Shown here one piece after another: positions 4,296 through 36,151 of a DNA stretch of 64,000 nt. Under the pieces are notes generated by a model. It made no database searches. It saw only the letters and a program-made list of their open reading frames with translations, and had not been told where the DNA came from. Positions within the stretch are counted from its first letter, which is position 1. Each line of letters starts with the position of its first letter. Made by a program: the position numbers and the translations under genes. Source of the stretch: Escherichia coli (GTDB lineage: Bacteria; Pseudomonadota; Gammaproteobacteria; Enterobacterales; Enterobacteriaceae); NCBI RefSeq assembly GCF_045037415.1, contig NZ_CP173438.1; one strand, written 5' to 3'.

Positions 4296-5216
4296 TTAAA
4301 TGTATAACGACGATTCACCCACCGGGCGCGTTTTAAAGCGACGGTGTATCCAGAGGTACTGCTCCGGTGCGCGCATGATCTCTTTCTCGATAATCTTGTT
4401 CATATAGGCAGCGGCTTGATTTTCATCTGTCGGGTAGCCTTCCATCTCTGGGGTGATGTACAAACGATATCCGCTGTAATCCGCTTTTCTTACCATCGTT
4501 ACGGTCAACATGGCTGCGCCAGAGAGACGAGAGAGGACATAGGTGCCATTGGTTGTGGCGACATTTTCCACCGCAAAGAACGGCGCGAAGGAGCTGCCTT
4601 TACGACCATAATCCTGATCGGGAGCAAACCATACCGCTTCACCTTTCTTCAGTGCACTGACAATGCCGCGCAGATTATTTCTGCCGATCATCGCTTTGTT
4701 AGAGCGCATGCGACCACGGGTCTGGACCCATTCCATCAGCTGATTATTATGCGGGCGATAGGTGGCCATCATTGGTTGGCAAAGTCCCATCACCCGACCG
4801 CCCAGTTCCAGCGACATAAAATGGACGCCGACAACCATTACGCCGCGATTTTGCATTTGTGCGCGTTTAAGGTTATCCAGCCCTTCCACATCAAACCATT
4901 TACGTACGCGACTGTCGGGCCAGAACCACGCCATGCCGGTTTCTACCAGCGCCATGCCGAGTGAACGAAAGTTTTCGGCAATCATCTTCTCGCGCTCTTC
5001 CGCAGAATGCTGCGGGAAACAAAGTTCCAGGTTTTTACGGGCGATAGATTCACGACGTTTCAGGAATGGTCGCGCCATTGTGCCGATACGCGTGCCGAGA
5101 AAGCAGAGAACAGGATAAGGAAGCTGTACCCAAAGCCAGAGTACACCAAGCCCAAACCACGTGAGCCAGTAGCGAGGATGCAGAAACTCGCGGGAAAATT
5201 TGCATTTTGGAAACAT
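4296..5216 (-). CDS. lpxP: Lipid A palmitoleoyl acyltransferase LpxP (306 aa)
   Basis: ORF 328 aa; trimmed to internal Met giving MFPKCKFSREFLHPRYWLTWFG..., the LpxP/LpxL-family N-terminus. Confidence 0.85.
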   Translation of the reverse strand: MFPKCKFSREFLHPRYWLTWFGLGVLWLWVQLPYPVLCFLGTRIGTMARPFLKRRESIARKNLELCFPQHSAEEREKMIAENFRSLGMALVETGMAWFWPDSRVRKWFDVEGLDNLKRAQMQNRGVMVVGVHFMSLELGGRVMGLCQPMMATYRPHNNQLMEWVQTRGRMRSNKAMIGRNNLRGIVSALKKGEAVWFAPDQDYGRKGSSFAPFFAVENVATTNGTYVLSRLSGAAMLTVTMVRKADYSGYRLYITPEMEGYPTDENQAAAYMNKIIEKEIMRAPEQYLWIHRRFKTRPVGESSLYI

Positions 5217-20325: not shown

Positions 20326-21654
20326 TTAACGGCCTTTTGCCAGATATTGATTCATCTCTTCTTCCGGCACCATTCCACCTCCCGTCGCCCACACCAGATG
20401 AGTGGCATTACGCAGTTGTTCTGCGCTGAAACCGTGCATCTGTTGGTAACTTACTGATGCGCACACGCGCTGAGGTCCGGCCATACCCGCCAGTGCCGAA
20501 GGTTCAAGACGAATACCTTCTTCCTGCGCCAGCCAGCCAAGCATGTCATACATGGTTTGATCGCTAAGGGTATAGAAGCCATCCAGCAGACGCTCCATCG
20601 CCCGCCCGACAAAGCCCGATGCGCGACCAACCGCAAGGCCATCGGCAGCGGTAAGGTTGTCGATGCCAATATCCTGAACAGAAATCTGATCGTGTAATCC
20701 GGTATGGACGCCTAATAACATACACGGGGAGTGTGTTGGTTCGGCAAAAAAGCAGTGAACATGATCGCCAAACGCCAGTTTAAGTCCGAATGCGACGCCA
20801 CCAGGACCACCGCCAACACCACACGGCAGATAGACAAATAGAGGGTTATCAGCATCGACGATACGGCCTTGCTGGGCAAATTGCGCTTTAAGACGCTGGC
20901 CAGCGACGGAATACCCAAGGAACAACGTGCGGGAATTCTCGTCATCAATAAAGAAACAGTTCGGGTCAGACTGCGATGCTTTACGTCCTTCCTCGACAGC
21001 AACACCATAATCTTGCTCATATTCCACGACCGTAACGCCATGGCTGCGCAGTTTCGCTTTTTTCCATGCCCGGGCATCAGCAGACATATGCACTGTCACC
21101 TTAAAGCCAATGCGGGCGCTCATAATACCGATTGATAACCCCAGATTTCCGGTTGAGCCCACAGCAATGCTGTATTGGCTAAAGAACTGTTTAAACTCCG
21201 GAGAAAGCAGTTTGCTGTAGTCATCTTCAAGCGTCAGCAACCCTGCTTCCAGAGCCAGTTTTTCTGCATGTGCCAGGACTTCATAAATCCCGCCGCGTGC
21301 TTTTATGGAGCCGGAAATAGGCAAATGGCTATCTTTTTTCAGTAACAGTTGCCCGCTGATCGGTTGCTGATATTCCTTTTCCAGCCGTTTTTGCATAGCC
21401 GGAATGGCAACCAGTTCTGATTCAATAATCCCCCCAGTGGCAGCAGTTTCAGGAAATGCTTTTGCCAGATAGGGGGCAAAACGAGATAAGCGCGCATGGG
21501 CGTCCTGAACATCCTGTTCGGTCAGGCCAACATAAGGTAAACCTTCAGCCAATGAGGTCGTGCCAGGATTGAACCAAGTGGTTTCTTTAAGAGCAACCAG
21601 ATCCTTTACCAACGGATACTGGGCGATGAGCGAATTCATTTTAGCGTTTTCCAT
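20326..21654 (-). CDS. dsdA: D-serine ammonia-lyase DsdA (442 aa)
   Basis: ORF 442 aa [31 protein letters not shown]...; PLP-binding SGSIKARGG motif. Confidence 0.95.
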
Positions 21655-21671: not shown

Positions 21672-23009
21672 TTAGATGATAAATGACAGCAGGAATGTGC
21701 CCGCCAGAGCGATGACCGAAGCGATAAATGTCGCTGTCGTATAGTATTTAAATGTTTCATTGAGCGTAGCGCCGCAATATTGCTTCACCAGCCAGAAAAG
21801 CGAGTCCGTAACGATCGTGCAGCCAATCGCACCGGAACCGATAGCAATCGCAATAATTTCCGGGCTGATGTCGGGATACAGCGGCAGCATGGGGGCAACA
21901 ATTGCCGTTGCCCCCATCATTGCCACCGTAGCGGAGCCCACTGCAGCATGCAGAATAAGTGCCACCAACCAGGCCAGAAGAATCGGGTGCATATGCATAT
22001 TGGAGAGAATAACTGCCAGCGTATCAGCGAGACTGCTGCTTTTTAAAATGGCGTTGAATGCGCCTCCGGCCCCGATAATCAGCAAAATATTAGCAATAGA
22101 ACCGAAACCATTTTCCGTATGTGTGAGCATCGTCCCCATGCTCATATGCTGACGTATACCCAACACATAATAGGCGACAAACACGGCGATAAACATGGCA
22201 GTGATAGGGTTGCCAATAAACTCAAGCAAGGTATACAAACCACTCTCACGCGCCATATTCAATTCGGCAATCGTTTTAACCAACATCAGCGCAATGGGTA
22301 GCAGTATGGTGAATAACGTTGCGCCTAATGAAGGTAGTGTTTTTTCATCGCGAACTTTGAGATCGGCAAACTCTGTGGGTACAGGTTTAAAGGGCAGTCG
22401 TTGCCCCAGAAATTTAAGGAAAAGTGGGCCACCGATCAGTGATGCCATCAGCCCAACCAGCAAACCGTAGACGATCACCGAACCGATATCTGCGCCCAGC
22501 TTATTGGCAACATATAAAGCAGCCGGATGTGGGGGAACCACGCAGTGCACAGCCATCAATGCGGTACACAGCGGAATGGCCAGCTTTAACAATGAGGTAT
22601 TGGTTTTTTTGGCAATTGAAAAAGCCAGAGGAATCAATAGCACGACGCCCACTTCAACAAACAGCGTGATGCCGCAAATCAGGCCAACCAGCACCATAAT
22701 GACATCAGCCGAAAGCCACCGGCAGCGTTGAAGTGTCAGACCAATTCTTTCTGCGGCCCCGGATACTTCCATCATTTTTCCCAGTATCGTGCCAAGGCCG
22801 ATAACCGCAGCGAGGAACCCCAGCGTTCCGCCAATTCCACTTTCAATAGCATTTACCATATCCAGTGGCCCCATACCCATCATCGTTCCCACGAAGAAGC
22901 TGGCCAGCAACAGCGCCAGAAACGGGTGGAATTTGAACTTCACGATGGTCAGTACAATTAACACGATGCTGATAAGCAGCGTGCTCACAACCCAGATTTG
23001 AGAGTGCAT
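21672..23009 (-). CDS. dsdX: D-serine transporter DsdX (445 aa), GntP family
   Basis: ORF 445 aa [30 protein letters not shown]... Confidence 0.9.
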
Positions 23010-23226
23010 ATCTCACCTTCCCCTGTGATTAACCTGATGATATTGGACAAAAAAACAACGCAGGCTGACAAACGATAAAATTTGCCTTTCACATGAGCTA
23101 AATTGCATCAAGGGAGTGATTTACATCTAAAAATGAAGGTGAATTGAGATATGGTTCACTTTAGCTCACCTTACAGCTGAAATTTTGCCGCTATTTTTTT
23201 ACACTTAATAGAAAAATGAGGTGATT

Positions 23227-24162
23227 ATGGAACCCCTTCGTGAAATAAGAAATCGACTGCTTAACGGCTGGCAACTATCAAAACTGCATACTTTTGAAGT
23301 GGCTGCCAGGCATCAGTCTTTCGCCCTGGCGGCAGAGGAATTGTCGCTGAGCCCCAGTGCGGTAAGTCACCGTATCAATCAGCTGGAAGAAGAATTAGGT
23401 ATTCAGTTGTTTGTTCGTTCCCATCGCAAAGTGGAATTAACGCACGAGGGGAAACGCGTTTATTGGGCGCTAAAATCGTCGCTGGATACCCTGAATCAGG
23501 AAATTCTGGATATCAAAAATCAGGAGTTATCGGGAACGTTAACTCTGTATTCCCGGCCCTCTATCGCCCAATGCTGGTTGGTGCCCGCATTAGGTGACTT
23601 TACACGCCGATATCCGTCTATTTCGCTCACCGTGCTCACTGGTAATGACAATGTCAATTTGCAACGTGCCGGAATCGATTTGGCGATCTACTTTGATGAT
23701 GCGCCGTCAGCGCAACTGACCCATAACTTTCTGATGGATGAAGAAATCTTGCCAGTTTGTAGCCCGGAGTACGCTCATAGACATGATTTAACCAACACGG
23801 TAATTAACCTGCGTCACTGTACGTTGCTCCATGACAGACAGGCATGGAGCAACGACTCCGGTACGGATGAATGGCATAGTTGGGCGCAACATTATGCGGT
23901 TAATTTGCCGACATCTTCTGGAATTGGCTTTGATCGTTCTGATTTAGCCGTTATCGCCGCGATGAATCATGTTGGGGTGGCGATGGGAAGGAAACGCCTG
24001 GTACAAAAAAGGCTTGCCAGTGGTGAGCTCGTCGCGCCGTTTGGCGATATGACGGTGAAATGCCATCAGCATTATTACATCACCACATTACCGGGCAGGC
24101 AGTGGCCAAAAATTGAGGCATTTATTACTTGGTTAAGAGAACAGGTAAAAACCACTTCATAA
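23227..24162 (+). CDS. dsdC: LysR-type regulator DsdC (311 aa)
   Basis: ORF 313 aa trimmed to MEPLREIRNRLLNGWQLSKLHTFEVAARHQSF...; LysR HTH. Confidence 0.9.
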   Translation: MEPLREIRNRLLNGWQLSKLHTFEVAARHQSFALAAEELSLSPSAVSHRINQLEEELGIQLFVRSHRKVELTHEGKRVYWALKSSLDTLNQEILDIKNQELSGTLTLYSRPSIAQCWLVPALGDFTRRYPSISLTVLTGNDNVNLQRAGIDLAIYFDDAPSAQLTHNFLMDEEILPVCSPEYAHRHDLTNTVINLRHCTLLHDRQAWSNDSGTDEWHSWAQHYAVNLPTSSGIGFDRSDLAVIAAMNHVGVAMGRKRLVQKRLASGELVAPFGDMTVKCHQHYYITTLPGRQWPKIEAFITWLREQVKTTS

Positions 24163-24260: not shown

Positions 24261-24280
24261 ATGGTGTCCCCTGCAGGAAT
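24261..24280. repeat. Distal attachment-site repeat of the argW-integrated element
   Basis: ATGGTGTCCCCTGCAGGAAT is an exact 20-bp copy of the argW 3' end at 36076-36095. Confidence 0.8.
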
Positions 24281-24400
24281 GTGATTAATGAATTAAGAAA
24301 TTGATTTTTATGAATATAAAATTTTTATTGTCATAATTCTATACACTTAGTTATACACATAAGAAAAAATCAGTGATTTTTATGGACTGGGTGTATCTTC

Positions 24401-24490
24401 CCCAGCCCAGCCCAGCCCAGCCCAGCCCAGCCCAGCCCAGCCCAGCCCAGCCCAGCCCAGCCCAGCCCAGCCCAGCCCAGCCCAGCCCAG
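24401..24490. repeat. Pentanucleotide microsatellite (CCCAG)x18
   Basis: Read directly: 90 bp of perfect CCCAG units, then CCCCAACAAA. Confidence 0.95.
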
Positions 24491-24582
24491 CCCCAACAAA
24501 CCTAATGCAGTCTTTAGTTTACAAATTGTTACATATATTATTCGTCAAATTTCATTATTATCAGAGAGGTAATGACTCCAAC

Positions 24583-25086
24583 TTATTGATAGTGTTTTAT
24601 GTTCAGATAATGCCCGATGACTTTGTCATGCAGCTCCACCGATTTTGAGAACGACAGCGACTTCCGTCCCAGCCGTGCCAGGTGCTGCCTCAGATTCAGG
24701 TTATGCCGCTCAATTCGCTGCGTATATCGCTTGCTGATTACGTGCAGCTTTCCCTTCAGGCGGGATTCATACAGCGGCCAGCCATCCGTCATCCATATCA
24801 CCACGTCAAAGGGTGACAGCAGGCTCATAAGACGCCCCAGCGTCGCCATCGTGCGTTCACCGAATACGTGCGCAACAACCGTCTTCCGGAGCCTGTCATA
24901 CGCGTAAAACAGCCAGCGCTGGCGCGATTTAGCCCCGACATAGCCCCACTGTTCGTCCATTTCCGCGCAGACGATGACGTCACTGCCCGGCTGTATGCGC
25001 GAGGTTACCGACTGCGGCCTGAGTTTTTTAAGTGACGTAAAATCGTGTTGAGGCCAACGCCCATAATGCGGGCTGTTGCCCGGCAT
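24583..25086 (-). CDS. insB: IS1 transposase InsB (167 aa)
   Basis: [53 protein letters not shown]..., matches IS1 InsB. Confidence 0.95.
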
Positions 25087-25280
25087 CCAACGCCATTCAT
25101 GGCCATATCAATGATTTTCTGGTGCGTACCGGGTTGAGAAGCGGTGTAAGTGAACTGCAGTTGCCATGTTTTACGGCAGTGAGAGCAGAGATAGCGCTGA
25201 TGTCCGGCGGTGCTTTTGCCGTTACGCACCACCCCGTCAGTAGCTGAACAGGAGGGACAGCTGATAGAAACAGAAGCCAC
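25005..25280 (-). CDS. insA: IS1 InsA (91 aa)
   Basis: [43 protein letters not shown]..., matches IS1 InsA. Confidence 0.95.
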
Positions 25281-25528
25281 TGGAGCACCTCAAAAACACC
25301 ATCATACACTAAATCAGTAAGTTGGCAGCATCACCTATCAGAGATTAACAAGCATTGGCAAAGGTTGTCACTCAGTAATACTCACCATTATTAACTATTA
25401 TTCACCATTATTTAGTATTCAAATTCTTTGAATGAGTTTGAAAGTGCCAGTCTTTACGTATTAATTCTTCTGTGCAAGTATATATACACCCAATAGAGAC
25501 TAATTAAGTCTTAGTATAAATATCTAAT

Positions 25529-25771
25529 GTGAAGGACATAGCCATGAGCTTATTGCCTCGGGAAAACGCACCCCAAAAAAGATATAGACTTCTGAGAATA
25601 TCAGAAGTGATTAATTTGACTGGCTTACCCAAGTCAACAATTTATCTAAAGATAAAGAATGATGAATTTCCGAACCAAGTTTCTATCGGTTCTCGTTCTG
25701 TTGCATGGGTGGAGCATGAAGTTAATGAATGGATAGAGAAGAATATTCTCAATAGAAAATTAAACTCCTAA
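25529..25771 (+). CDS. AlpA-family phage transcriptional regulator (HTH); true start may be the internal Met at 25544
   Basis: ORF 80 aa with YRLLRISEVINLTGLPKSTIYLKIKNDEFPNQVSIGSRSVAWVEHEVNEWI, the AlpA/MerR-like HTH pattern. Confidence 0.75.
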   Translation: MKDIAMSLLPRENAPQKRYRLLRISEVINLTGLPKSTIYLKIKNDEFPNQVSIGSRSVAWVEHEVNEWIEKNILNRKLNS

Positions 25772-25788: not shown

Positions 25789-26649
25789 ATGGTTGACAAT
25801 GTTTTTAAGAAGAAATTGGCATCAATTAAGAACGAACATGTGTCGGTGTTAGATAGTTACAAAGTAAGATCATTTAAAGAGACTCATAGCGACACGGCCT
25901 GTATTGTGCGTATTATTGAAATATATTCACTGAATAAGCTGCGAGCTAAAGGTGAAAAGCTGTATTCACTTACGGGGTTAACAGTACCTGATACGGAAAC
26001 TGTGGCGAATGAGATCAACCTGCTCCTGAGCCGTTATGCCCAGTTGTGTCGTCAGGAAGAGGAAGAGTTATCTTTCCGGCAGCGTGAAGTGACAAATGCG
26101 GAAGTTGCATGGAAAAGCACATTCTCAAAAAACGGCGTCAGTAGCATTGCTGAAGCCAAAACGAATAAAATGGGGCATGCTGAACGAGCGGATGCTGAAC
26201 GGTATTACCATCTGGCTGTTTCCCGGTTGAATGAACAACATAGTCGATTGAGCACGATCAAGCTTTTGCCGGGAGTACTGGCCGATGAAGGAAACTACAT
26301 TGGGAAGGGAATCGATAAGCGTTTACTGAATATATTTCCTCAATCCGGCCAGATCCCTGCTGATTTTATTTCTGTATTTAATGACAGTGACGTTGTCCGT
26401 GATATTAAATTTATTACTGATGCACTCAAGTCTTTATCTGATTCCGTGAGTGAAATTATTAGTCGTTGTAGCGTTCCAACTGATCGTTATGTATTAAATA
26501 ACGGTGGAATGGCAAGAGCTATGGCTTACAGGGAGTACTATCGAGCAGATAATTATGTATTACGTTCAGTCGTAAGTGACCGGGATTATGTTGAGCATGT
26601 AATGAAATACAATCTGGTTACTGAGTACAAAAATAAAATCTTTTCTTAA
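25789..26649 (+). CDS. Hypothetical protein (286 aa) directly upstream of capsid-like gene; possible scaffold or capsid-remodelling protein
   Basis: ORF track only; consistent coding frame; function assigned by position, not by motif. Confidence 0.5.
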   Translation: MVDNVFKKKLASIKNEHVSVLDSYKVRSFKETHSDTACIVRIIEIYSLNKLRAKGEKLYSLTGLTVPDTETVANEINLLLSRYAQLCRQEEEELSFRQREVTNAEVAWKSTFSKNGVSSIAEAKTNKMGHAERADAERYYHLAVSRLNEQHSRLSTIKLLPGVLADEGNYIGKGIDKRLLNIFPQSGQIPADFISVFNDSDVVRDIKFITDALKSLSDSVSEIISRCSVPTDRYVLNNGGMARAMAYREYYRADNYVLRSVVSDRDYVEHVMKYNLVTEYKNKIFS

Positions 26650-26671
26650 ATACTTAAAAAGGTGAAAAACT

Positions 26672-27676
26672 ATGTATGCCTTCAAAACTGAAAGGCCGGA
26701 CGCAGCACGTCGTTATCATAATAAATTCGTCACTGGCACTAACTATCAGGAAGAATCAAACAGACGCTTTGCATTAAGCGAACCTACTGAAAATATACTG
26801 CGTACCTCAATTCTGGAATCCGGGTGGCTTATTAAAAATATTACCCTACGTGATGTTAACGCCGTGTCAGGTAATGCCGTCAATATTGGTGCCAGTGAAC
26901 TGTATACCGGACGTGTGGATGGTGGCCGTTTCCACAAAAAAATGGCAATCAATGGTACGGAGTTCTTTCTGACAGAGACGGATACCTGCGCCCGGATCAG
27001 CTATTCCGATATGTCTCATATTTACCATACCGGCGTGCCGGATGAGTTTGAGAAAACGGTTGAGAGCTTTTTTGCCCAGGCATATGCGCTGGACATGCTG
27101 CGGGTCGGTTTCAACGGTGTGTCGATTGCAAATACTACAAACCCGGAAATCAATAAAAAAGGCGAGGATGTCAATATTGGCTGGCATGCACTGGCGAAAG
27201 CCTACGGGAACGGAAAGCAAATCATCTCTGAGCCTGTCACTCTGGGAGAGACTGGCACCTGGAAAAATATTGATGCTCTGGCCAACCATCTGATTACAGA
27301 GCTTATTGCTGAGCAGTTTCGTGAAGATCCTCGTCTGGTTGTACTGGTTGGGGCAGAGCTGGCAGCACATCAACGCCTGAAGTTATTTAATGCCGCAGAC
27401 CGCCCGTCTGATGTGAATGCGGCACAGATGGCTACAAGTTCTGTTGCTGGCCGCTTTGCGTTTATTCCCCCGTTTATGCCGGGTAAGCGTCTGGCAGTAA
27501 CGACGCTGGATAATCTGCATATTTACACTCAGGCGATAACACGCTGGTTTCGTGCTGAGTTTGATGATGAAAGCAGTGAATACGTGCATTCCTACCTGCG
27601 CAATGAAGGTTATGCACTCGGTGAACCTGAACTGTACGCGGCTGTTGATGAGTGCACCCTGACGTTTGCGGATTGA
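26672..27676 (+). CDS. P2-GpN-like major capsid protein homolog (334 aa)
   Basis: Blocks FALSEPTENILRTSILES..., MLRVGFNGV...NIGW..., DALANHLITELIAEQFREDPRLVVLVGAEL and TLDNLHIYT align by eye with my recollection of P2 GpN; needs profile confirmation. Confidence 0.45.
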   Translation: MYAFKTERPDAARRYHNKFVTGTNYQEESNRRFALSEPTENILRTSILESGWLIKNITLRDVNAVSGNAVNIGASELYTGRVDGGRFHKKMAINGTEFFLTETDTCARISYSDMSHIYHTGVPDEFEKTVESFFAQAYALDMLRVGFNGVSIANTTNPEINKKGEDVNIGWHALAKAYGNGKQIISEPVTLGETGTWKNIDALANHLITELIAEQFREDPRLVVLVGAELAAHQRLKLFNAADRPSDVNAAQMATSSVAGRFAFIPPFMPGKRLAVTTLDNLHIYTQAITRWFRAEFDDESSEYVHSYLRNEGYALGEPELYAAVDECTLTFAD

Positions 27677-27905
27677 CTTAGCGACAGAAAGACCCGCTCA
27701 GAGGCGGGTTCGTTTACAGCATCAGGAAAAATGAAGAACTATTTTTAAGCAGAGGCTTAAGCATGCCAGCGTTAATTAATCCAGGCAATGATCAGTTTTC
27801 GGTTATAAATTTCTTGCCTCACCAGGAATGCGCGGGATATAGTTTAAAGGTTGCCGCAAAATCGGCAGCCGGGCGTAGGAACCCGTGTTATCTGAAGGCG
27901 ATACT

Positions 27906-27929
27906 ACACGCGCTAGGCGTGTTTTTTTG
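27906..27929 (+). terminator. Rho-independent terminator inside the apparent non-coding leader upstream of the primase operon
   Basis: ACACGC-GCTAG-GCGTGT hairpin followed by TTTTTTT. Confidence 0.55.
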
Positions 27930-28149
27930 TGTCGCAGCTTTGACTCACCTAAAATTTATGGTGTGGTGGCTGATTGTATTTTTTTATTTTTTACGCCACA
28001 TCATCAGAATTATGGTAGTCCAGGCGGGGCAGCTTTCGGGCTGGCCGGTATCCTTCAGAGCCGGTATTCCTACCCCCGTCTGGGCTACCACCCATGAGCG
28101 TAGGAACTCCGGTGGTAGCGTTACCCGCTATCTGAAGGAGGTTGCCATT

Positions 28150-28353
28150 ATGGCTACAGTCCCTGCTTTATCTCACCCTGAATTTACCTTTGTCTTTCTG
28201 GCTGTCCGCCGTACAGACCGTGATGCCCGTCCACGCCCTGTGCGTGTAATCGCAGAATGCGAGCATGCTGCACGCCTTAAACTTGCCACTGAATTTATCC
28301 TGAGCTTTGCTGCCCGTATCCCTGTGAAAAGAGCCGGGGAGGTGGTTGCATGA
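28150..28353 (+). CDS. Small hypothetical protein (67 aa), first gene of a translationally coupled operon
   Basis: ATG at 28150 preceded by GAAGGAGG; stop overlaps next start (ATGA); the 196-aa ORF-track call 27763-28353 is treated as spurious upstream of this Met. Confidence 0.4.
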   Translation: MATVPALSHPEFTFVFLAVRRTDRDARPRPVRVIAECEHAARLKLATEFILSFAARIPVKRAGEVVA

Positions 28354-28586
28354 AATCCATGAATTTTAAGCAAGGCTGCATATTGAGTGAACAGGGGGAG
28401 AGTCGTCTGTTACGGGCGGCACTGGCCAGTGAGTTTCTTGCAGAGGTCTTGTCCGTGCCCACAGTGAATGGAGCGAGAACTGTTTCAGCGGAAGGCGCTG
28501 CGGCTTTAGTGGCCTGTATTGCCGAACAACTGGATGGCGTTGTTAAGGAAACCAGCACAATTAAGGGAGTGATGCGCGATGAATAA
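28350..28586 (+). CDS. Small hypothetical protein (78 aa)
   Basis: ORF track; start overlaps upstream stop and end overlaps next ORF. Confidence 0.45.
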   Translation: MKSMNFKQGCILSEQGESRLLRAALASEFLAEVLSVPTVNGARTVSAEGAAALVACIAEQLDGVVKETSTIKGVMRDE

Positions 28587-28989
28587 TAATCAAAATTTAA
28601 AGGCGCATGCTTTACGAACAGCAGTCTTACGCTACTACATTGCTGATGCATTCATTTCCTTAATGGTGCGTGTTCATAATGAACCTGTTTATATTGAAGA
28701 TGGCGAACGAATAGAACTCTCCCACGAAAAAGTGGTGAGTAATATTATTTACCATATTGAAATGCCGTGGGTGAATGAGTTTGGGGCTGATGCTGGTTGC
28801 ATACTGGCCGCAGAGAAACTGGAAAAAATGCTTAAACCAGGCTTTATGTCAGAAAATATTCGCCTGTCAGTTTTTGGTGTCACAGAGATGCGTGAGGTTT
28901 ACCGGGATATTATTTTCGGAGCACCTGATGGCGAACTACCCGAAGGTTTTGAATTTGTGAAGCCGGAAGGTCAGGAGGTGCTGCTGTGA
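28579..28989 (+). CDS. Hypothetical protein (136 aa) immediately upstream of primase
   Basis: ORF track; 4-nt overlap with primase start suggests coupling. Confidence 0.5.
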   Translation: MNNNQNLKAHALRTAVLRYYIADAFISLMVRVHNEPVYIEDGERIELSHEKVVSNIIYHIEMPWVNEFGADAGCILAAEKLEKMLKPGFMSENIRLSVFGVTEMREVYRDIIFGAPDGELPEGFEFVKPEGQEVLL

Positions 28990-31673
28990 AAACACCGTCT
29001 GTATCCACGATTTCCGGAGCTGCAATTGGGCGCTGGCCTTATATCCTGTCAGCATTAGGTATTAAAGTACCGTCCGCAGGACATCATGGGGCTTGCCCTG
29101 CCTGTGGTGGAAAAGATCGTTTTCGACTGGACGATAAAGCGGGGCGAGGGACGTGGTTTTGTAATCAGTGCGGTCATGGCGATGGTCTTGATCTGGTTCG
29201 TCTGGTGACAGGAAGAAAGATAAAAGAAGTCGCCGGGATGGTATCTGAGGCGCTTGCATTACCAGAAATACAGGAGAAGCCCGCATTGCCAGCCAGGAAA
29301 AAGGCCGCAGGAAAAGAAGCGGGCGCGGAGCGATATACCAGACTCAGACAGCAGTCCTGCAATGGTGAGCCGGTCTATCTGACAAATAAGAGCTTACACG
29401 GGTATTCACTTCCCTTGCTGTCACAGCCTTTGAATCTGGCCGGAATAACATTTTCCACCGGTTCATTACTGCTGCCTTTGACGGATATTTCCGGGAATAT
29501 TACTGGTGGCCAGCTTATCAATCCTGACGGGGATAAAAGTCTGCTGCCCGGTAGCCAGCTGTCTGGCGCATTCATTGCCCTGACCGATATACCCGCTGAA
29601 ACACCTGAACAGGTGATTATCACTGAGGGTTTTGCCACGGCGCTTACCGTCAGTCTGCTGACTGAAGGATGGATCGTGGCGGCTGTCGCTGCCACCAATT
29701 TACTGAAGGTGACGGAGCAGATCCGAAAACGCTGGCCGGAAACCCGGATCATTCTGGCCGGAGATAATGATCTGGCTGACGGCAAAGAAAACACCGGGCG
29801 TATTCAGGCAGAGAAAGCCGCCAAAGCGGTGGATGGCTGGGTAACGCTCCCTCCGGTACGCCATAAGGCTGACTGGGATGATTATCGGCAGGAAGTGGGG
29901 AAAGAACGGGCGAGAGATGCCTTTCGTGAAGAAATGACGCTGCATGGCAAAGGGCAGACCCGTTTACCAGAAGGGTTCCGGCTGACAAAAGAATATTTGT
30001 GGTACGACAAGCTGGTTAATAAGTCTGATGGTGATACAGAGATACGTAATATCAAAATTTGCAGTCCGTTGCGGGTGACGGCAATCACCAGTGATGCTGA
30101 TGGAAGTAATTACGGGCGTTTGCTGGAATGGGAAGATACCAACGGAAACAGCCGTAAATGGGCAATGCCGATGGAGATGCTGGGCGGTAGCGGGGAAGAA
30201 CTGCGCCGCGTTCTGCTGGTTAACGGGCTTTCTTACATCAACATTAACGGCATGGCCAGAGCATTCCTGATGGAATATATCTCGCTGTGTAAACCGGACA
30301 GAAAAGTAACCTGTGTGAATAAAACTGGCTGGCACGGCGGGGTTTACGTTCTCCAGGATGAAGTGATAGGGCGCGAAGCCCAGTCAGTCATCTTACAAAC
30401 ATCGAGTGTGCAGGGGCGTGATTTTCGTGTCAGCGGCACATCAGAGGGCTGGCGTGAAAATATAGGCCGTTATTGCATAAAGAATGCCCGTCTTGCCTTT
30501 GCGGTGAGTCTGGCATTTGCTGCCCCCCTTCTGAAACTGGTTGGTATCGGCGGTGGAGGTTATCACCTCAAAGGGGAATCCACAGACGGTAAAACCACGA
30601 CGATGAAAGTGGCTGCATCAGTATGTGGTGGAACAGATTTCTGGCATACGTGGCGGGCGACGGGGAATGCCTTAGAAGGAACGGCGAGCCGCCGCAATGA
30701 TGCCACGCTGATGCTGGATGAAATCCGGGAGGTTGACGGCAGGGAGGCGGGAAATATCGCTTATATGCTGGCTAACGGGCAGGGCAAAGCCAGAGCCAGA
30801 ACAGATGGTTCGGTAAGGGAAACCAACCGCTGGAATCTGTTGTTTCTGTCTACCGGGGAACTGTCACTGGTAGAGCATGCGGCAAGCGCCGGGGAACGTA
30901 CGTATGCCGGGGTTGAGGTCAGAATGATCCAGATCCCAAGCGATTCGGGCAAGTATGGCGTGTTTGAAGAACTTCATGGCTTCAGTAGCGGGAAAACCCT
31001 GGCTGAGCATCTTGAGCAGCACGTAGCGCATTATCATGGTGCACCATTCCGCGACTGGCTGTATTGCCTGACCGCTGATCTGCCGGAACTGACCAGTCAG
31101 GCGAAAGCCTTATTGAAAGAGTATACCCGAAGGCTGACGCCGGAAAATGCCGGGAATCAGGTTGGCCGGGCTGTTACCCGTTTTGCTCTGGTTGCGATGG
31201 CCGGGGAGCTGGCCACAAAAGCGGGCATCACAGGATGGCCGGAGGGAGAGGCCTTTCGTGCCGCTCAAAGCTGTCTGGCTGCATGGATGGCTGACCGGGG
31301 CCATACAGCTAATCAGGAAGATAAAGCGGCACTTGAACAGGTTCGGGACTTCATGACGCGTAATCAGTTCAGTCGGTTTGCTGACTGGAATGACGACAGG
31401 AACCGGCCTGTTTCAATGATGGGATTCAGAAAAGTCGATAAAGGAGACAACGTGACAGAGCCGGTTGTGACGTTCTACGTTCTCCCGTCAGGCTGGAAGG
31501 AGATCTGTAAGGGATTTGACTCGCGTAAGGTGGCCAGGTTGTGTGTGGACGCGGGCTGGCTGAAACCCGGTGAAGATGGCCGGACGCAAAACAGCATTCG
31601 CCTGCCAGAAATAGGGCTTAAACGTGTGTACCAGTTCAATACACAGGTACTGGGAAGCGCTGAACCTGAGTGA
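28986..31673 (+). CDS. P4-alpha-like zinc-binding primase-helicase (895 aa)
   Basis: N-terminal CPACGG...FCNQCGHGDG zinc-finger pair; Walker A GESTDGKTT; overall satellite replication-protein architecture. Confidence 0.8.
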   Translation: MKTPSVSTISGAAIGRWPYILSALGIKVPSAGHHGACPACGGKDRFRLDDKAGRGTWFCNQCGHGDGLDLVRLVTGRKIKEVAGMVSEALALPEIQEKPALPARKKAAGKEAGAERYTRLRQQSCNGEPVYLTNKSLHGYSLPLLSQPLNLAGITFSTGSLLLPLTDISGNITGGQLINPDGDKSLLPGSQLSGAFIALTDIPAETPEQVIITEGFATALTVSLLTEGWIVAAVAATNLLKVTEQIRKRWPETRIILAGDNDLADGKENTGRIQAEKAAKAVDGWVTLPPVRHKADWDDYRQEVGKERARDAFREEMTLHGKGQTRLPEGFRLTKEYLWYDKLVNKSDGDTEIRNIKICSPLRVTAITSDADGSNYGRLLEWEDTNGNSRKWAMPMEMLGGSGEELRRVLLVNGLSYININGMARAFLMEYISLCKPDRKVTCVNKTGWHGGVYVLQDEVIGREAQSVILQTSSVQGRDFRVSGTSEGWRENIGRYCIKNARLAFAVSLAFAAPLLKLVGIGGGGYHLKGESTDGKTTTMKVAASVCGGTDFWHTWRATGNALEGTASRRNDATLMLDEIREVDGREAGNIAYMLANGQGKARARTDGSVRETNRWNLLFLSTGELSLVEHAASAGERTYAGVEVRMIQIPSDSGKYGVFEELHGFSSGKTLAEHLEQHVAHYHGAPFRDWLYCLTADLPELTSQAKALLKEYTRRLTPENAGNQVGRAVTRFALVAMAGELATKAGITGWPEGEAFRAAQSCLAAWMADRGHTANQEDKAALEQVRDFMTRNQFSRFADWNDDRNRPVSMMGFRKVDKGDNVTEPVVTFYVLPSGWKEICKGFDSRKVARLCVDAGWLKPGEDGRTQNSIRLPEIGLKRVYQFNTQVLGSAEPE

Positions 31674-31699
31674 TTATCGCGTGAGTCTTATTTTTATGA

Positions 31700-31888
31700 G
31701 GTAACACTGGTAACAGAGGTAACACCCGTTACTGATGCGGTTCTTCAGTGTTACCAGTCAAAAATACTGACTGGTAACAGAGGTAACAAAAAATGGTGTG
31801 TTACCACGCGTTACCTCTTGATTTTGCTAACTGGTAACAGATTAAATCCTTTTAAATCAATAGCGTTACACGTGTTACCAGTGTTACA
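31700..31888. promoter_or_regulatory. Iteron cluster, candidate origin of replication of the element
   Basis: At least 12 copies of GGTAACA / TGTTAC(C/A) in both orientations within ~190 bp just 3' of the primase gene. Confidence 0.55.
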
Positions 31889-31955
31889 CGTTCAGAACAA
31901 GAGGTAGGGATCCAAATCCCTTCTTCTGGCGGGCAACAGTATAGGGCACAGAACG

Positions 31956-32228: not shown

Positions 32229-32907
32229 AGTATGCGTCGGGAATGGCCGATCTGTTCCCGGAACCTGAACACAGGATTTCAGTTTATACGGTCATAAAAT
32301 TATTATTTTTCAACTGGTTATCTTCTTCATGTTTCACAAACCTTCATAAAATCACACACCTAAAATTAATTATCCATTTAATATCATAGAGTTGCGTATT
32401 CAGGCCATAGATTCGACGGACAGTAAAACTGAAAAAAAATGAATTTCTTTTCATTCTTTTCAGTTCCTGTATCGCAGTACATCTCGAGGACTGGCACGGA
32501 CTGGCGGTATCGTTTGTAAAAAATCCAGGCTGAAAATTTTTAGTGATATGAAAACCGCAGGCGGGTGCGGTGTAGTGCCGTTTTGGTCTGTCGAGCGTAT
32601 ATTTTCCTTTTTCACGATTGCTGCATATCAAAACGAATGTGCAGATATCAGGCCGTGTCAAACCGTGAATCGTGGAGCCTAAATGCCCAAACTACGTTTG
32701 TAGACCTAGCTAGGGGAAGGTTTCCACATATACTGCTACCTATCTTCCAGTCGCTGGTGAGGATCAAGGTAAGCTAACTGGTGAACAAGAAAAGTACTTT
32801 CGTATCTTGCGTACTCGTTTTTTTTGATTAGTATGTACAGGTAGTAACTGGATGGTGAGAATTCGTCATAACTTATCAAATTGCATGATGTTTATAGAGT
32901 ATGAGTA

Positions 32908-33789
32908 ATGAGTCATAATAAAAAGGAATATGCTAAATTTTTCCGTCGCCCCATTTTTTCATCCTTAGCAAAAGGTAAGGATATTTCGGATTTATTTGGG
33001 AGTTTTGATTCTTACTGCTATGAAACACTGTTTTCAAACAATGATAATAATGAACATGAGATTTCACTAAGGGATTTATTTACATCATTATATGATTTTT
33101 TGCGTCTGAATTATAGAAATGAATATGTTTATAAGACAGCACTTGTCAATAAAATAATATTCGGTAAGCACAGCCCAAAAACAAGTTCGTCGTCCATAGA
33201 GTTACCAATTAAAAACTCTATAGTGGATGTTGCGGTGTTTAATGGTACGTCTACAGCTTACGAGATTAAGACAGAGTATGATTCACCAAAAAGGTTGATT
33301 ACTCAAGCCCCTGATTATTTGGATGTTTTTGATAAAGTGTATATAGTTACACATCCAGAGTATGCAAGTAAATATTGTGCTTTAAATCTCCCCAGAGTGG
33401 GAGTTATGGTTTTGAATAAAAAAGATCAATTGAGTGTCATTAAGGAGGCAGATTCAAATATTGATTATATTAAAAGTGACAGCTTGTTTTCAGTTCTTAG
33501 AAAGGAAGAGTTCTTAGCTATAATAGAAGATTACACTTCAACTAAAATAAATATGCCTAACGGATTGGTTTATGAATATTGTAAAGAGATATTCATGCAG
33601 ATGCCATTAAACATAGCAAATAAATACTTTATCTCTGCTATGAAAAAAAGATGTAACGATAAAGTTTTTTTGGATTATATTTATTCTCTTCCAGCATGTT
33701 TACGTGTTTTAGGTTATGCAACACCATTATCAAGAAAGCAAAAAGAATTCATCATGAATTTGATGGATGTAAAAATTAAAATTTGTTGA
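32908..33789 (+). CDS. Hypothetical protein A (293 aa), AT-rich cargo gene with PD-(D/E)xK-like motif
   Basis: ORF track; IVDVAVFNGTSTAYEIKTE (D107 ... E119-x-K121) resembles a restriction-endonuclease-fold catalytic core; strong AT bias unlike flanking DNA. Confidence 0.6.
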   Translation: MSHNKKEYAKFFRRPIFSSLAKGKDISDLFGSFDSYCYETLFSNNDNNEHEISLRDLFTSLYDFLRLNYRNEYVYKTALVNKIIFGKHSPKTSSSSIELPIKNSIVDVAVFNGTSTAYEIKTEYDSPKRLITQAPDYLDVFDKVYIVTHPEYASKYCALNLPRVGVMVLNKKDQLSVIKEADSNIDYIKSDSLFSVLRKEEFLAIIEDYTSTKINMPNGLVYEYCKEIFMQMPLNIANKYFISAMKKRCNDKVFLDYIYSLPACLRVLGYATPLSRKQKEFIMNLMDVKIKIC

Positions 33790-33810
33790 TATCCTCAGGA
33801 GTTGTAAGTT

Positions 33811-34761
33811 ATGTATAGCCCATATTTGTATGCGAGAAGTACAGAGTTATTATGCCTTAGGGACCTCGTTGCGAAGGGAGTTAGCCTAAATGGTCTGCTA
33901 CCAATTTTAGAACCAATTAACGTCAATACGAGAAATTTATTAACATGTTTAAATGTTTGGAATTCTGACATAATTGTTATCCTTAATCCTTATCAGGAAG
34001 ATTTTTCTTCACACAATAACGTCTTAACTTTAAATCAAAATTTATCAAGTGTATTAACAAATAAAAATAATATCATCTCTGGATATCTTATTCAGCCCAA
34101 TACAACGATTAATGATATTAATAATTGGTTGAATGCTAACTTAAATAGACGAGTTGCACTTCTATATGATAATCCATCATTATCCAACTCTGATATTCAG
34201 TTGTTGGCGACAAATCAATTGATTAGTTATCATGTTGTTTTAAATAATAAAATGCTTCCTAATCAGTGCGCTCTTCTTCCTTTGTCGAAGTTAATTATTA
34301 TTAGCGATAACTTTAGAAAGTTAGCAAAAAATGCTGATTATAATGGGCCGGAACTTTTCACGCACGCACATCAATTCGTGGGACAAAATTACTTAGGATT
34401 TGGCGATTATACAATTACTGGCCAGGTACTAGATCTTGGAGGTGGTCAACCTTCTGCTGTTGCCGCACATTTGGTGTTCAAGAATTTACAAGCGAATACA
34501 GTTTGGATTCGTCATTTTGTATCAAGCAACACGCAACGAGGAAGTTCAAATGTTACTGCAAAATTTTTAGATGTTTCAGATCAAATTACAAATCTTGTTC
34601 CCCAACATCCAACCCAGTTTGGCAGCAACATTGGTCTTAACTATTATTATTACAATAGTCAACCAACTGTAAGGCATTTCCCTGGGTTGCCAAAAAACAA
34701 ACAGTATCAAATTACTCACCATATTTGTTTCATGCTGGATTTAATAGCAGGTCGTATTTAA
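33811..34761 (+). CDS. Hypothetical protein B (316 aa), AT-rich cargo gene, Asn/Ser/Leu-rich, no motif I can assign
   Basis: ORF track; AGGAG Shine-Dalgarno 8 nt upstream; 21-bp gap from gene A; 3' end overlaps integrase 3' end convergently. Confidence 0.6.
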   Translation: MYSPYLYARSTELLCLRDLVAKGVSLNGLLPILEPINVNTRNLLTCLNVWNSDIIVILNPYQEDFSSHNNVLTLNQNLSSVLTNKNNIISGYLIQPNTTINDINNWLNANLNRRVALLYDNPSLSNSDIQLLATNQLISYHVVLNNKMLPNQCALLPLSKLIIISDNFRKLAKNADYNGPELFTHAHQFVGQNYLGFGDYTITGQVLDLGGGQPSAVAAHLVFKNLQANTVWIRHFVSSNTQRGSSNVTAKFLDVSDQITNLVPQHPTQFGSNIGLNYYYYNSQPTVRHFPGLPKNKQYQITHHICFMLDLIAGRI

Positions 34762-35916
34762 TAAGCTAGCGTACCATTCCATCATTACTTGTCGATCTTT
34801 AATATATTGCGCATGATTGTAAGTACCTCGAATAGAGTTCTTATCAACATGCGCAAGCTGCATTTCAATCCAGGCACTTTCAAACCCATGCTCATGCAAG
34901 ATGGTGCTCATGGTATGCCTGAAACCGTGACCCGTTAACCGACCGTGATAACCCAGTAGTTTTATCACTTTGTTGATGCTGGCTTCGCTCATTGGTTTAC
35001 TGACGTCATTCCGGCCAGGGAAAACGAGGCTGTAATTCCCTGTTATTTCTTGCAGCTTTTTCAGGATATTGATCGCCTGAGTTGATAACGGAACCAGATG
35101 GGGGCGGCGTTTCTTCATCCGTTCTTTGGGGATCTCCCATAAGGCATTATCTAAATCAAACTCAGCCCATTCCGCTGCACGTAGTTCAATTGTTCGCACG
35201 CCTGTTAGCATCAACAGCTGCGTGGCGTATTTGGTAACTAAACTGCCCTGATAGTTATCCAGAGCATTAACGAACTCGGGCAACTCGCTTTCAGTCAGGA
35301 ACGGGAAGTGTTGGGTTTTAGGTTTGTTGAGTGCGATAGCTAAATCGGGTGCAAAATTATACTTTGCTCTACCAGTGGCAACAGCATAACGAAGCACTTC
35401 ACCACAGCGGCGGCGGATCTTACTGGTTTGCTCTAGCGCACCTCTTTTCTCTATTTTTTGCAGGACGGTTAGCAGTTCTAATGGTTCAATCTGCTCAATT
35501 GGGCGCTGGCCGATAAAAGGAAAAATATCCTTTTCCATACAATTGAGAACCTCTTTTGCATAACCCTCTGACCAGGTGGCTTTTTTCGATGAGTGCCATT
35601 CTCTGGCCACAGACTCAAAGCTGTTCTCATGCGCGAACTGCAAAGCAATCTTATCTGCTTTTCTGGCTTCACTTGGGTTTATCCCGTTGGCTAACATCGA
35701 ACGCGCTTCATCACGTTTGGTACGTGCCTGTGCCAACGACACATCGCCATATACGCCAAAGGAAATCATCTTAGGCTTACCTGCAAAGCGATAGCGAAAA
35801 CGCCAGCCTTTACTGCCCGCTGTGTCGATCAGGAGTGATAGCCCCATACCATCGTTAAGCGTATAGGGTTTGTCCTTCGGTTTTGCTCTTTTTATTTGGA
35901 TGTCAGATAGCAGCAT
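34741..35916 (-). CDS. P4-family tyrosine integrase (391 aa)
   Basis: ORF 407 aa trimmed to MLLSDIQIKRAKPKDKPYTLNDGMGLSLL...; C-terminal HxxR ... Y catalytic pattern; adjacent to tRNA. Confidence 0.85.
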   Translation of the reverse strand: MLLSDIQIKRAKPKDKPYTLNDGMGLSLLIDTAGSKGWRFRYRFAGKPKMISFGVYGDVSLAQARTKRDEARSMLANGINPSEARKADKIALQFAHENSFESVAREWHSSKKATWSEGYAKEVLNCMEKDIFPFIGQRPIEQIEPLELLTVLQKIEKRGALEQTSKIRRRCGEVLRYAVATGRAKYNFAPDLAIALNKPKTQHFPFLTESELPEFVNALDNYQGSLVTKYATQLLMLTGVRTIELRAAEWAEFDLDNALWEIPKERMKKRRPHLVPLSTQAINILKKLQEITGNYSLVFPGRNDVSKPMSEASINKVIKLLGYHGRLTGHGFRHTMSTILHEHGFESAWIEMQLAHVDKNSIRGTYNHAQYIKDRQVMMEWYASLLNTTCY

Positions 35917-36075
35917 GTGTATAGAAAAAAGATCGAACTCAGTTATACACAATGTTATACGCAAAGATGTATAGATTCCATTAGAAATAATGGTACTTTG
36001 CTGGACGAGTATAAGGAGATGATATCAGTTAAAACAGTGAGTTATGGAATTAATTGAACTTAGTGAGAAGTGTTC

Positions 36076-36095
36076 ATGGTGTCCCCTGCAGGAAT
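36076..36095. repeat. tRNA-proximal attachment-site repeat (overlaps argW 3' end)
   Basis: ATGGTGTCCCCTGCAGGAAT, identical to 24261-24280. Confidence 0.8.
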
Positions 36096-36151
36096 CGAAC
36101 CTGCAATTAGCCCTTAGGAGGGGCTCGTTATATCCATTTAACTAAGAGGAC
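36077..36151 (-). tRNA. argW: tRNA-Arg (anticodon CCU)
   Basis: Reverse complement reads GTCCTCTTAGTTAAATGGATATAACGAGCCCCTCCTAAGGGCTAATTGCAGGTTCGATTCCTGCAGGGGACACCA; cloverleaf with CCU anticodon and T-arm GGTTCGATTCC. Confidence 0.9.

Follow-up and report, generated by a model that had tools for sequence, protein, structure and literature searches.

We present an analysis of a perfect pentanucleotide repeat, (CCCAG)n, found in Escherichia coli within a 64,000-nucleotide stretch of DNA, which is called the window throughout this text. The tract is probably a lineage-specific variable number tandem repeat (VNTR), driven by slippage and residing in a dispensable, non-coding spacer of a P4-like satellite integrated at argW. 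This reading was placed first because no conserved open reading frame or frame bias accompanies the tract, no predicted promoter overlaps it, the signals of the element lie elsewhere and the tract itself is dispensable. We infer that it has no required function for the element and that its effect would be at most a modulating one, exerted on transcripts crossing the repeat; the neutrality of the tract is reached by elimination.

Tandem Repeats Finder reported the array as (CCCAG)18.6 at positions 24401-24493, with a period of 5, 100% matches, no indels and a score of 186, and in the raw letters it consists of 18 full CCCAG units followed by CCC. The perfect tract that an earlier note had placed at 24401-24490 is thus real and reaches 24493. 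As in VNTRs, a short unit of high purity is repeated head-to-tail, and on the minus strand the array is a (CTGGG)n series of G3N2 repeats. No second array of more than 3.9 copies was detected by the same program in the 64-kb window, and therefore the tract is far beyond chance. The rarity of such repeats in E. coli, also claimed beforehand, agrees with a published review that cites a survey of K-12 repeats, in which the K-12 genome is credited with no pentanucleotide repeats and with tetranucleotide repeats of at most four copies (PMC7015867). Searches of the literature (for the repeat sequence, for an ST131 pentanucleotide repeat and for a tandem repeat at argW) returned no description of the locus. 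Microsatellites and VNTRs are a known kind of feature; the CCCAG locus itself appears to be undescribed, and unusual for E. coli.

The tract belongs to a P4-like satellite prophage of 11.8 kb, which is integrated at the tRNA gene argW. The dsdC-side boundary of the element is the attR core at 24261-24280, a 20-bp copy of the argW 3' end recognized as an exact 20-mer common with the attL core at 36076-36095, which belongs to the minus-strand argW tRNA-Arg(CCU) region at 36076-36151 (tRNA at 36077-36151, Rfam tRNA match). In genomes free of the element the dsdC-side homology passes directly into tRNA-Arg (matches H75-H90). On the chromosomal side of attR lie dsdA (20326-21654, minus strand), dsdX (21672-23009, minus strand) and dsdC (23221-24162, plus strand), named after the annotation of matching RefSeq genomes. 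In the pig isolate G3X16-2 (L171 1684-3268) the satellite stands beside an IntS-type prophage integrase and not beside dsdC, an arrangement which suggests tandem occupancy of the argW site.

Within the element, a plus-strand gene at 25544-25771 codes for a 75-aa AlpA-family protein (phrog_2790 and phrog_66, 'excisionase and transcriptional regulator'; AlpA family or HTH regulator in RefSeq). It is followed by the block of satellite core genes extending through the primase (25789-31673, plus strand), which was delimited with phrog, RefSeq and Rfam matches. This block comprises a hypothetical 286-aa protein lacking a family match (25789-26649), a homologue of the P2-type major capsid protein (26672-27676; phrog_70, E = 2e-86), an Icd-like region (27837-28095), two small ORFs and a large primase (28986-31673), all on the plus strand. 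The satellite therefore codes for its own P2-family major capsid homologue in place of the expected capsid-size factors of Sid/Psu type. Rfam matches to C4 antisense RNA (81 bits), isrK (69 bits) and c4-a1b1 fall inside the Icd-like region and represent an RNA immunity module of P1/P7/P4 type. Just 3' of the primase gene, at 31690-31890, GGTAACA motifs form a cluster of direct and inverted repeats (Tandem Repeats Finder, 31699-31725). In P4 iterons are bound by the alpha protein, and by this analogy the cluster is likely the replication origin of the satellite. A zinc finger gene of Delta/Ogr type comes next, and then a cos-like stretch at 32424-32590. The latter is 72-77% identical to the very terminus of linear records of ESSI-2-like phages and to a short Salmonella phage record that lacks annotation; from this resemblance it is likely the packaging site. 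We take ESSI-2 to be a P2-like phage. The 19-mer of P2/P4 cos, allowing up to three mismatches, was absent from the 64-kb window. Two cargo genes of unassigned function follow at 32908-34761 (phrog_984, phrog_34524, and a weak PADLOC 'cll' match). The content of this slot, between delta/cos and int, differs between copies of the element, and in strain 15A23CPO013 (L034 21664-23926) it holds an AAA ATPase and a DUF4435 protein, presumably a defence pair of PARIS type. The tyrosine integrase gene, on the minus strand at 34741-35964 (phrog_1 integrase, E = 5e-74), adjoins attL; its translation may in fact start downstream of 35964.

The repeat begins 120 bp inside the dsdC-side junction. It had been described as lying on the att-distal side; in fact it is att-proximal, 120 bp from the attR core, and distal solely with respect to the int/argW end. 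The distance to alpA given in the same note, about 250 bp upstream when IS1 is ignored, stands well: with IS1 and its 9-bp duplication subtracted, about 273 bp separate the tract from the alpA-like start codon at 25544. Between the core and the microsatellite, on the plus strand at 24338-24358, we found a pair of TATACAC motifs placed 12 bp apart (TCTATACAC and GTTATACAC), and the tract starts 43 bp past this pair. Exact copies of GTTATACAC occur in the window only twice, at 24350 and 35942, and each has a partner 12 bp away, at 24338 and, with one mismatch and next to int, at 35954. Both pairs lie within about 135 bp of their respective att cores, and in two relatives without the repeat (L045 and L181) comparable TATAC pairs are found equally far from the core. 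Judged from this arrangement, the TATACAC pairs are candidate arm-type integrase sites.

Promoters were searched by a consensus scan of the IS1-free JJ1886 locus, and the matches were mapped onto the coordinates of the window. The scan returned 5 sites versus 3.5 in shuffled sequences, and since this is barely above expectation the putative promoters serve as leads only. One of them, TTGCCA-16-GATAAT on the minus strand (-35 at 25361-25356, -10 at 24562-24557, 10/12 matches), points leftward into the tract and toward attR, or toward int in the excised circle, with its -10 element 66 bp from the repeat; in two sublineages this element has decayed to GATAAC. The -35 element, at 25356-25361, overlaps a putative rightward promoter of the alpA operon, TTGGCA-16-AATACT (25355-25382, plus strand), located about 88 bp from the tract and directed at alpA, the TGGCAA element of which is kept in all five E. 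coli sublineages. Just 3' of it, at 25374-25419 on the plus strand, TCACCATTATT is present as direct repeats in 2-3 copies (Tandem Repeats Finder, period 10/20); they are operator- or iteron-like, and relatives conserve them in the form of TTCACC repeats. Intrinsic terminators were also sought from the dsdC stop codon to the tract, and none was detected.

Comparison with JJ1886 located in this spacer a 768-bp IS1 (24568-25335, minus strand), flanked by a 9-bp target duplication, TATCAGAGA, at 24559-24567 and 25336-25344. The insertion splits the putative leftward promoter, parts the tract from alpA and adds 777 bp between them. Its junction was found in none of the 5,426 complete E. coli genomes, which makes the insertion private to this strain.

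Megablast of the flanks detected the locus in approximately 419 of the 5,426 complete E. coli genomes (about 8%). Many of the carriers are labelled ST131 or are known strains of this type, for instance JJ1886 and EC958, which we take to be ST131. Because BLAST masks the repeat, the copy number was deduced from the span between the flank matches in complete genomes, and some values rest on assemblies that could misjudge long repeats. In about 110 genome records of the approximately 419 carriers, alleles of 2, 5-24, 28, 29, 31, 32 and 44 units were noted, which makes about 26 sizes. Sequences of 2 (AVS0790), 5, 10, 12, 13, 16, 18, 24, 32 and 44 units were read directly, the longest being composed of 24 units, TCCAG and 19 further units. 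A set of 84 genomes, taken at even intervals along two rankings, had a median of 15 units. Length deviations were exact multiples of 5 bp with two exceptions, a single 1-nt difference and strain AZ 191, in which the 5' flank is duplicated. The neighbouring 2,363 bp are at least 99% identical in 420 genomes, so that whole-unit alleles occur among close relatives with constant flanks, again as in VNTRs. Slipped-strand change of length, anticipated in the earlier note, is thereby borne out by alleles of 2-44 units differing nearly always in 5-bp steps, and the invariance across isolates that had been set beforehand as its refutation was not observed.

Near-identical genomes allowed the pace of this change to be judged. 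Five 'Esc' genomes all had 15 units and three '1162' genomes all had 11, and in another set CREC-U3 and CREC-36 had 31 units and CRKP-1 had 28. Some sets being uniform and one not, length change is fast on the scale of a clone but not on that of every isolate. In AZ 191 (L168 252-389) 18 units are followed by a 33-bp duplicate of the 5' flank and then by 3 units, an order due either to genuine local duplication at this site or to faulty assembly.

Beyond close relatives, the tract is retained at the same place in five diverged sublineages of the argW element, the flanks of which are identical down to about 84%; it has 16 units in PEC1011, 13 in 15A23CPO013, 18 in 33E, 10 in GDSC2BY4G, 10+6 in SC477 and 10 in G3X16-2. 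In these sublineages the 5' flank is conserved and the 3' flank is full of indels, some of which are not multiples of 3. The distant relatives L045 and L181, with AlpA proteins 66-69% identical, share the argW core and the layout of arm sites and alpA and have no repeat; aligned with them, the gap covers the tract together with about 17 bp on its 5' side and about 25 bp on its 3' side. Satellites with the same capsid module and a different int-alpA module are also devoid of it, and AVS0790 has only 2 units in an otherwise intact region. Together, the natural 2-unit allele and the repeat-less relatives indicate that carriage of the element does not require the tract. Outside this family, (CCCAG)5 or longer arrays were found in genomes of at least 120 other species; among the matches listed these are mostly GC-rich (median GC 0.66), the contexts are unrelated and no flank is common with the satellite save one chance 10-mer. 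IMG/VR contained 31 CCCAG stretches, only one of which (L016) belongs to this element. The motif was rejected as a marker of the satellite family, as tracts elsewhere lie in unrelated contexts and CCCAG arises repeatedly.

According to the slippage reading, the tract would sit between an attP-type recombination region, formed by the core and the TATACAC pairs, and the promoter region of the alpA operon, and its length would shift in 5-bp steps via replication slippage. Folding of the (CTGGG)n strand into a hairpin or G-quadruplex could stabilise the slipped intermediates. Mismatch repair is inefficient on loops of five bases.

A classical contingency locus, in which frameshifts would switch ON and OFF a peptide encoded by a small ORF carrying the tract, is very improbable. 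Such an ORF could be the plus-strand one starting from ATG 24382 and coding for (PSPAQ)n, or a minus-strand one coding for (LGWAG)n; the frame at 24373-24648 is indeed open across the repeat, PGAP puts a minus-strand 'hypothetical protein' over long alleles, and elsewhere in E. coli CCCAG acts like a coding switch within the gene of an FkbM methyltransferase. However, no Shine-Dalgarno sequence or other ribosome-binding site was seen before the only ATG, the plus-strand ORF of the window merely runs into IS1, minus-strand ORFs exist only where the tract is long, and past the tract the frame is not conserved, the sublineages differing by non-triplet indels in the flank. Copy numbers of the 84 genomes were likewise spread evenly over the three frames (n mod 3 = 22/29/33; chi-square p = 0.40 for mod 3 in a 56-genome subsample), and their parity (n mod 2 = 42/42) gave no sign of a constraint by helical phase. 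We therefore rejected the coding reading, the frame not being conserved, and the frame-shifting role put forward earlier falls with it. The same note had proposed that the repeat alters promoter spacing as a phase switch, which we also rejected: the consensus scan predicted no promoter spanning the tract and none with the tract between its -35 and -10 elements, the nearest being at least 66 bp off. Thus, of two hallmarks of simple sequence repeat (SSR) contingency loci, a conserved ORF or a position within or next to core promoter elements, the tract displays neither. Still harder to credit is a packaging, replication or recombination signal, i.e. cos, origin iterons or a binding array of Int/Xis, although the intergenic position close to att and the tandem arrangement, typical of arrays that bind proteins, would suit it. 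The cos-like stretch (32424-32590) is 8 kb away and the tract has no likeness to cohesive ends of the helper family, which leaves the suggested packaging role unsupported; the GGTAACA iterons sit 3' of the primase gene. The recombination role fares no better, as the candidate arm sites are the TATACAC pairs, found on both arms and conserved in relatives without the tract, and CCCAG is missing from the int-side arm and from L045 and L181. A binding array, moreover, would not tolerate 2-44 units or total absence. The Rfam scan of the whole element matched no RNA family at the tract (only C4, isrK, c4-a1b1 and tRNA), which lies outside the arm-site candidates, the origin-like iterons, the immunity RNAs (27837-28095) and the cos-like region.

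Several observations speak against a neutral VNTR. Pure arrays of 10-18 or more units are kept in at least five sublineages with flanks differing by up to about 16%, and persistence of pure arrays is usually taken as a signature of selection for mutability; the site is intergenic and regulatory, with a fair, tract-facing leftward promoter match 66 bp away and the putative alpA promoter about 88 bp away; and CCCAG seems to be a frame-shifting repeat in another E. coli gene. Long perfect SSRs are, moreover, otherwise nearly absent from E. coli (PMC7015867). Because long pure arrays persist across diverged sublineages, two cis-regulatory readings were kept under consideration. One, which we regard as unlikely, is a structured leader: a leftward transcript would run via (CTGGG)n, cross attP and, once the element is a circle, enter int; a G-quadruplex or hairpin would form in the RNA and in the G-rich non-template strand, and its size, fixed by the copy number, would tune read-through into int, making competence for integration and excision heterogeneous within a population. 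A search of both strands of the 64-kb window for at least four G3 runs separated by 1-7 nt gave a single G-quadruplex motif, on the minus strand at 24400-24494. The minus-strand DNA of the tract folds at -16.5 kcal/mol (z = -5.3), with the plus-strand DNA unstructured, and the minus-strand RNA at -64 kcal/mol (z = -8.5), a value that falls to -88 kcal/mol once G-quadruplexes are permitted. A 10/12 promoter match faces the tract, and the order int, core, tract and promoter, read against the direction of transcription, holds true in the circular form. Against this, the promoter is a consensus match from a scan with 5 sites versus 3.5 in shuffles, its -10 is GATAAC in two sublineages, and it is intact only in IS1-free strains, having been destroyed by IS1 in the window; relatives without the tract share the layout, a 2-unit allele exists, and int, directly 3' of argW in the same orientation, may not need this promoter. 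The other reading, a Rho-loading pad, is improbable: (CCCAG)n RNA of 25-220 nt would recruit Rho on rightward transcripts coming from dsdC/attR, so that read-through would end before the alpA operon and the excision switch would be shielded from host transcription. The plus-strand RNA is nearly unstructured (centroid 0, MFE -9.7 kcal/mol) and the C/G ratio is 3.2 over the tract versus 0.4-0.8 upstream, in line with a rut site (C-rich, G-poor, unstructured and about 60-80 nt or more), although many alleles are shorter than 60 nt. A Rho binding site is usually quoted as about 70-80 nt, which the median allele of 15 units, or 75 nt, matches, and the stretch from the dsdC stop to the tract has no detected intrinsic terminator. 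On the other hand, alleles of 2-8 units are common and too short for a full Rho site, relatives do without the tract, and the idea comes from composition alone; both readings, the leader and the pad, we infer from composition. In a broader form, which we consider doubtful, the tract would be a satellite-borne contingency element, a length-variable G-quadruplex/C-rich module, kept by selection in this lineage, that would set transcription across attP in the manner of a stochastic rheostat. Such a rheostat could affect leftward transcription into int after excision, or Rho-linked rightward read-through into alpA.

Returning to the slippage-driven VNTR, the tract resembles bacterial VNTR/MLVA loci in being a perfect head-to-tail repeat of a short unit, non-coding, with whole-unit alleles, many of them within one clone. 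It differs from them in the 5-bp unit and the 2-44 range, which are exceptional for E. coli, and in its location on a mobile satellite prophage, because of which typing is confined to carriers (about 8% of complete genomes). Non-coding SSR contingency loci include (AGAT)n in the 5' UTR of Moraxella uspA2 and (TA)n between the divergent promoters of Haemophilus hif. In Neisseria nadA a phase-variable repeat tract lies upstream of the promoter (PMC2791445). With such loci the CCCAG tract shares hypermutability, an intergenic position near divergent promoters, here putative ones, and a length varying between close relatives; unlike them, it is outside the predicted promoters and has no parity or phase pattern of copy number, and relatives work without it. 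In Neisseria gonorrhoeae, pilin antigenic variation depends on a G-quadruplex upstream of pilE, an invariable element of 16 nt with an essential sequence. The likeness consists in a G3-tract motif on one strand by a recombination locus, with a nearby promoter, putative in our case, that could open the duplex; the CCCAG motif is, however, a variable array of 2-44 units, and the recombination at its locus is site-specific, by a tyrosine integrase, and not RecA-dependent gene conversion. The host element itself is like P4 and P4-like satellites in having int by a tRNA gene, an AlpA/Vis-type regulator, a large primase, a Delta/Ogr-type activator, immunity RNA of C4/CI type and a cos-like stretch related to ESSI-2-like phages. 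Unlike them, it has the P2-type major capsid homologue where sid/psu would be expected, and its alpA and int are at opposite ends of the prophage, flanking attP in the circle. We know of no microsatellite in P4 itself.

E. coli is a textbook example of a genome nearly free of long microsatellites, and a tract with at least 26 alleles in one pandemic clone is a clear exception, indicating that slippage-prone tracts can persist in this species on mobile DNA. The CCCAG locus is a genuine hot spot of mutation, a ready high-resolution marker for sub-typing ST131 and related carriers and, if neutral, still a good natural system for determining rates of pentanucleotide slippage in E. coli. As it lies between a recombination site and the promoter of an excision regulator and carries a G-quadruplex/C-rich motif, it is also a tractable test of tuning by non-B DNA or Rho. 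If the rheostat reading were true, otherwise identical ST131 cells would differ in their readiness for satellite excision, re-integration or mobilisation, and the tract would become the first bet-hedging device built on an SSR to be described for mobile DNA of E. coli. The locus also carries a warning for assembly and annotation in the form of spurious PGAP proteins on long alleles: minus-strand 'hypothetical proteins' are annotated on alleles of 18-44 units (L002 3952-4167, L036 1320-1445, L167 1002-1280, L170 1681-1827) and are very likely artefacts of the G-rich repeat.

A second (CCCAG)n tract of E. coli is located in a gene of an FkbM-family methyltransferase (L019 8294-8428; L027, minus strand, approximately 4733-4762), these two IMG/VR contigs carrying 27 and 6 units. 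Five complete genomes match, and for four of them (H242-H245) the spans imply 5, 12, 14 and 19 units. RefSeq annotates a single intact CDS of this gene only at n = 12 and two split CDSs otherwise, a pattern that fits a genuine frame-shifting phase-variable gene.
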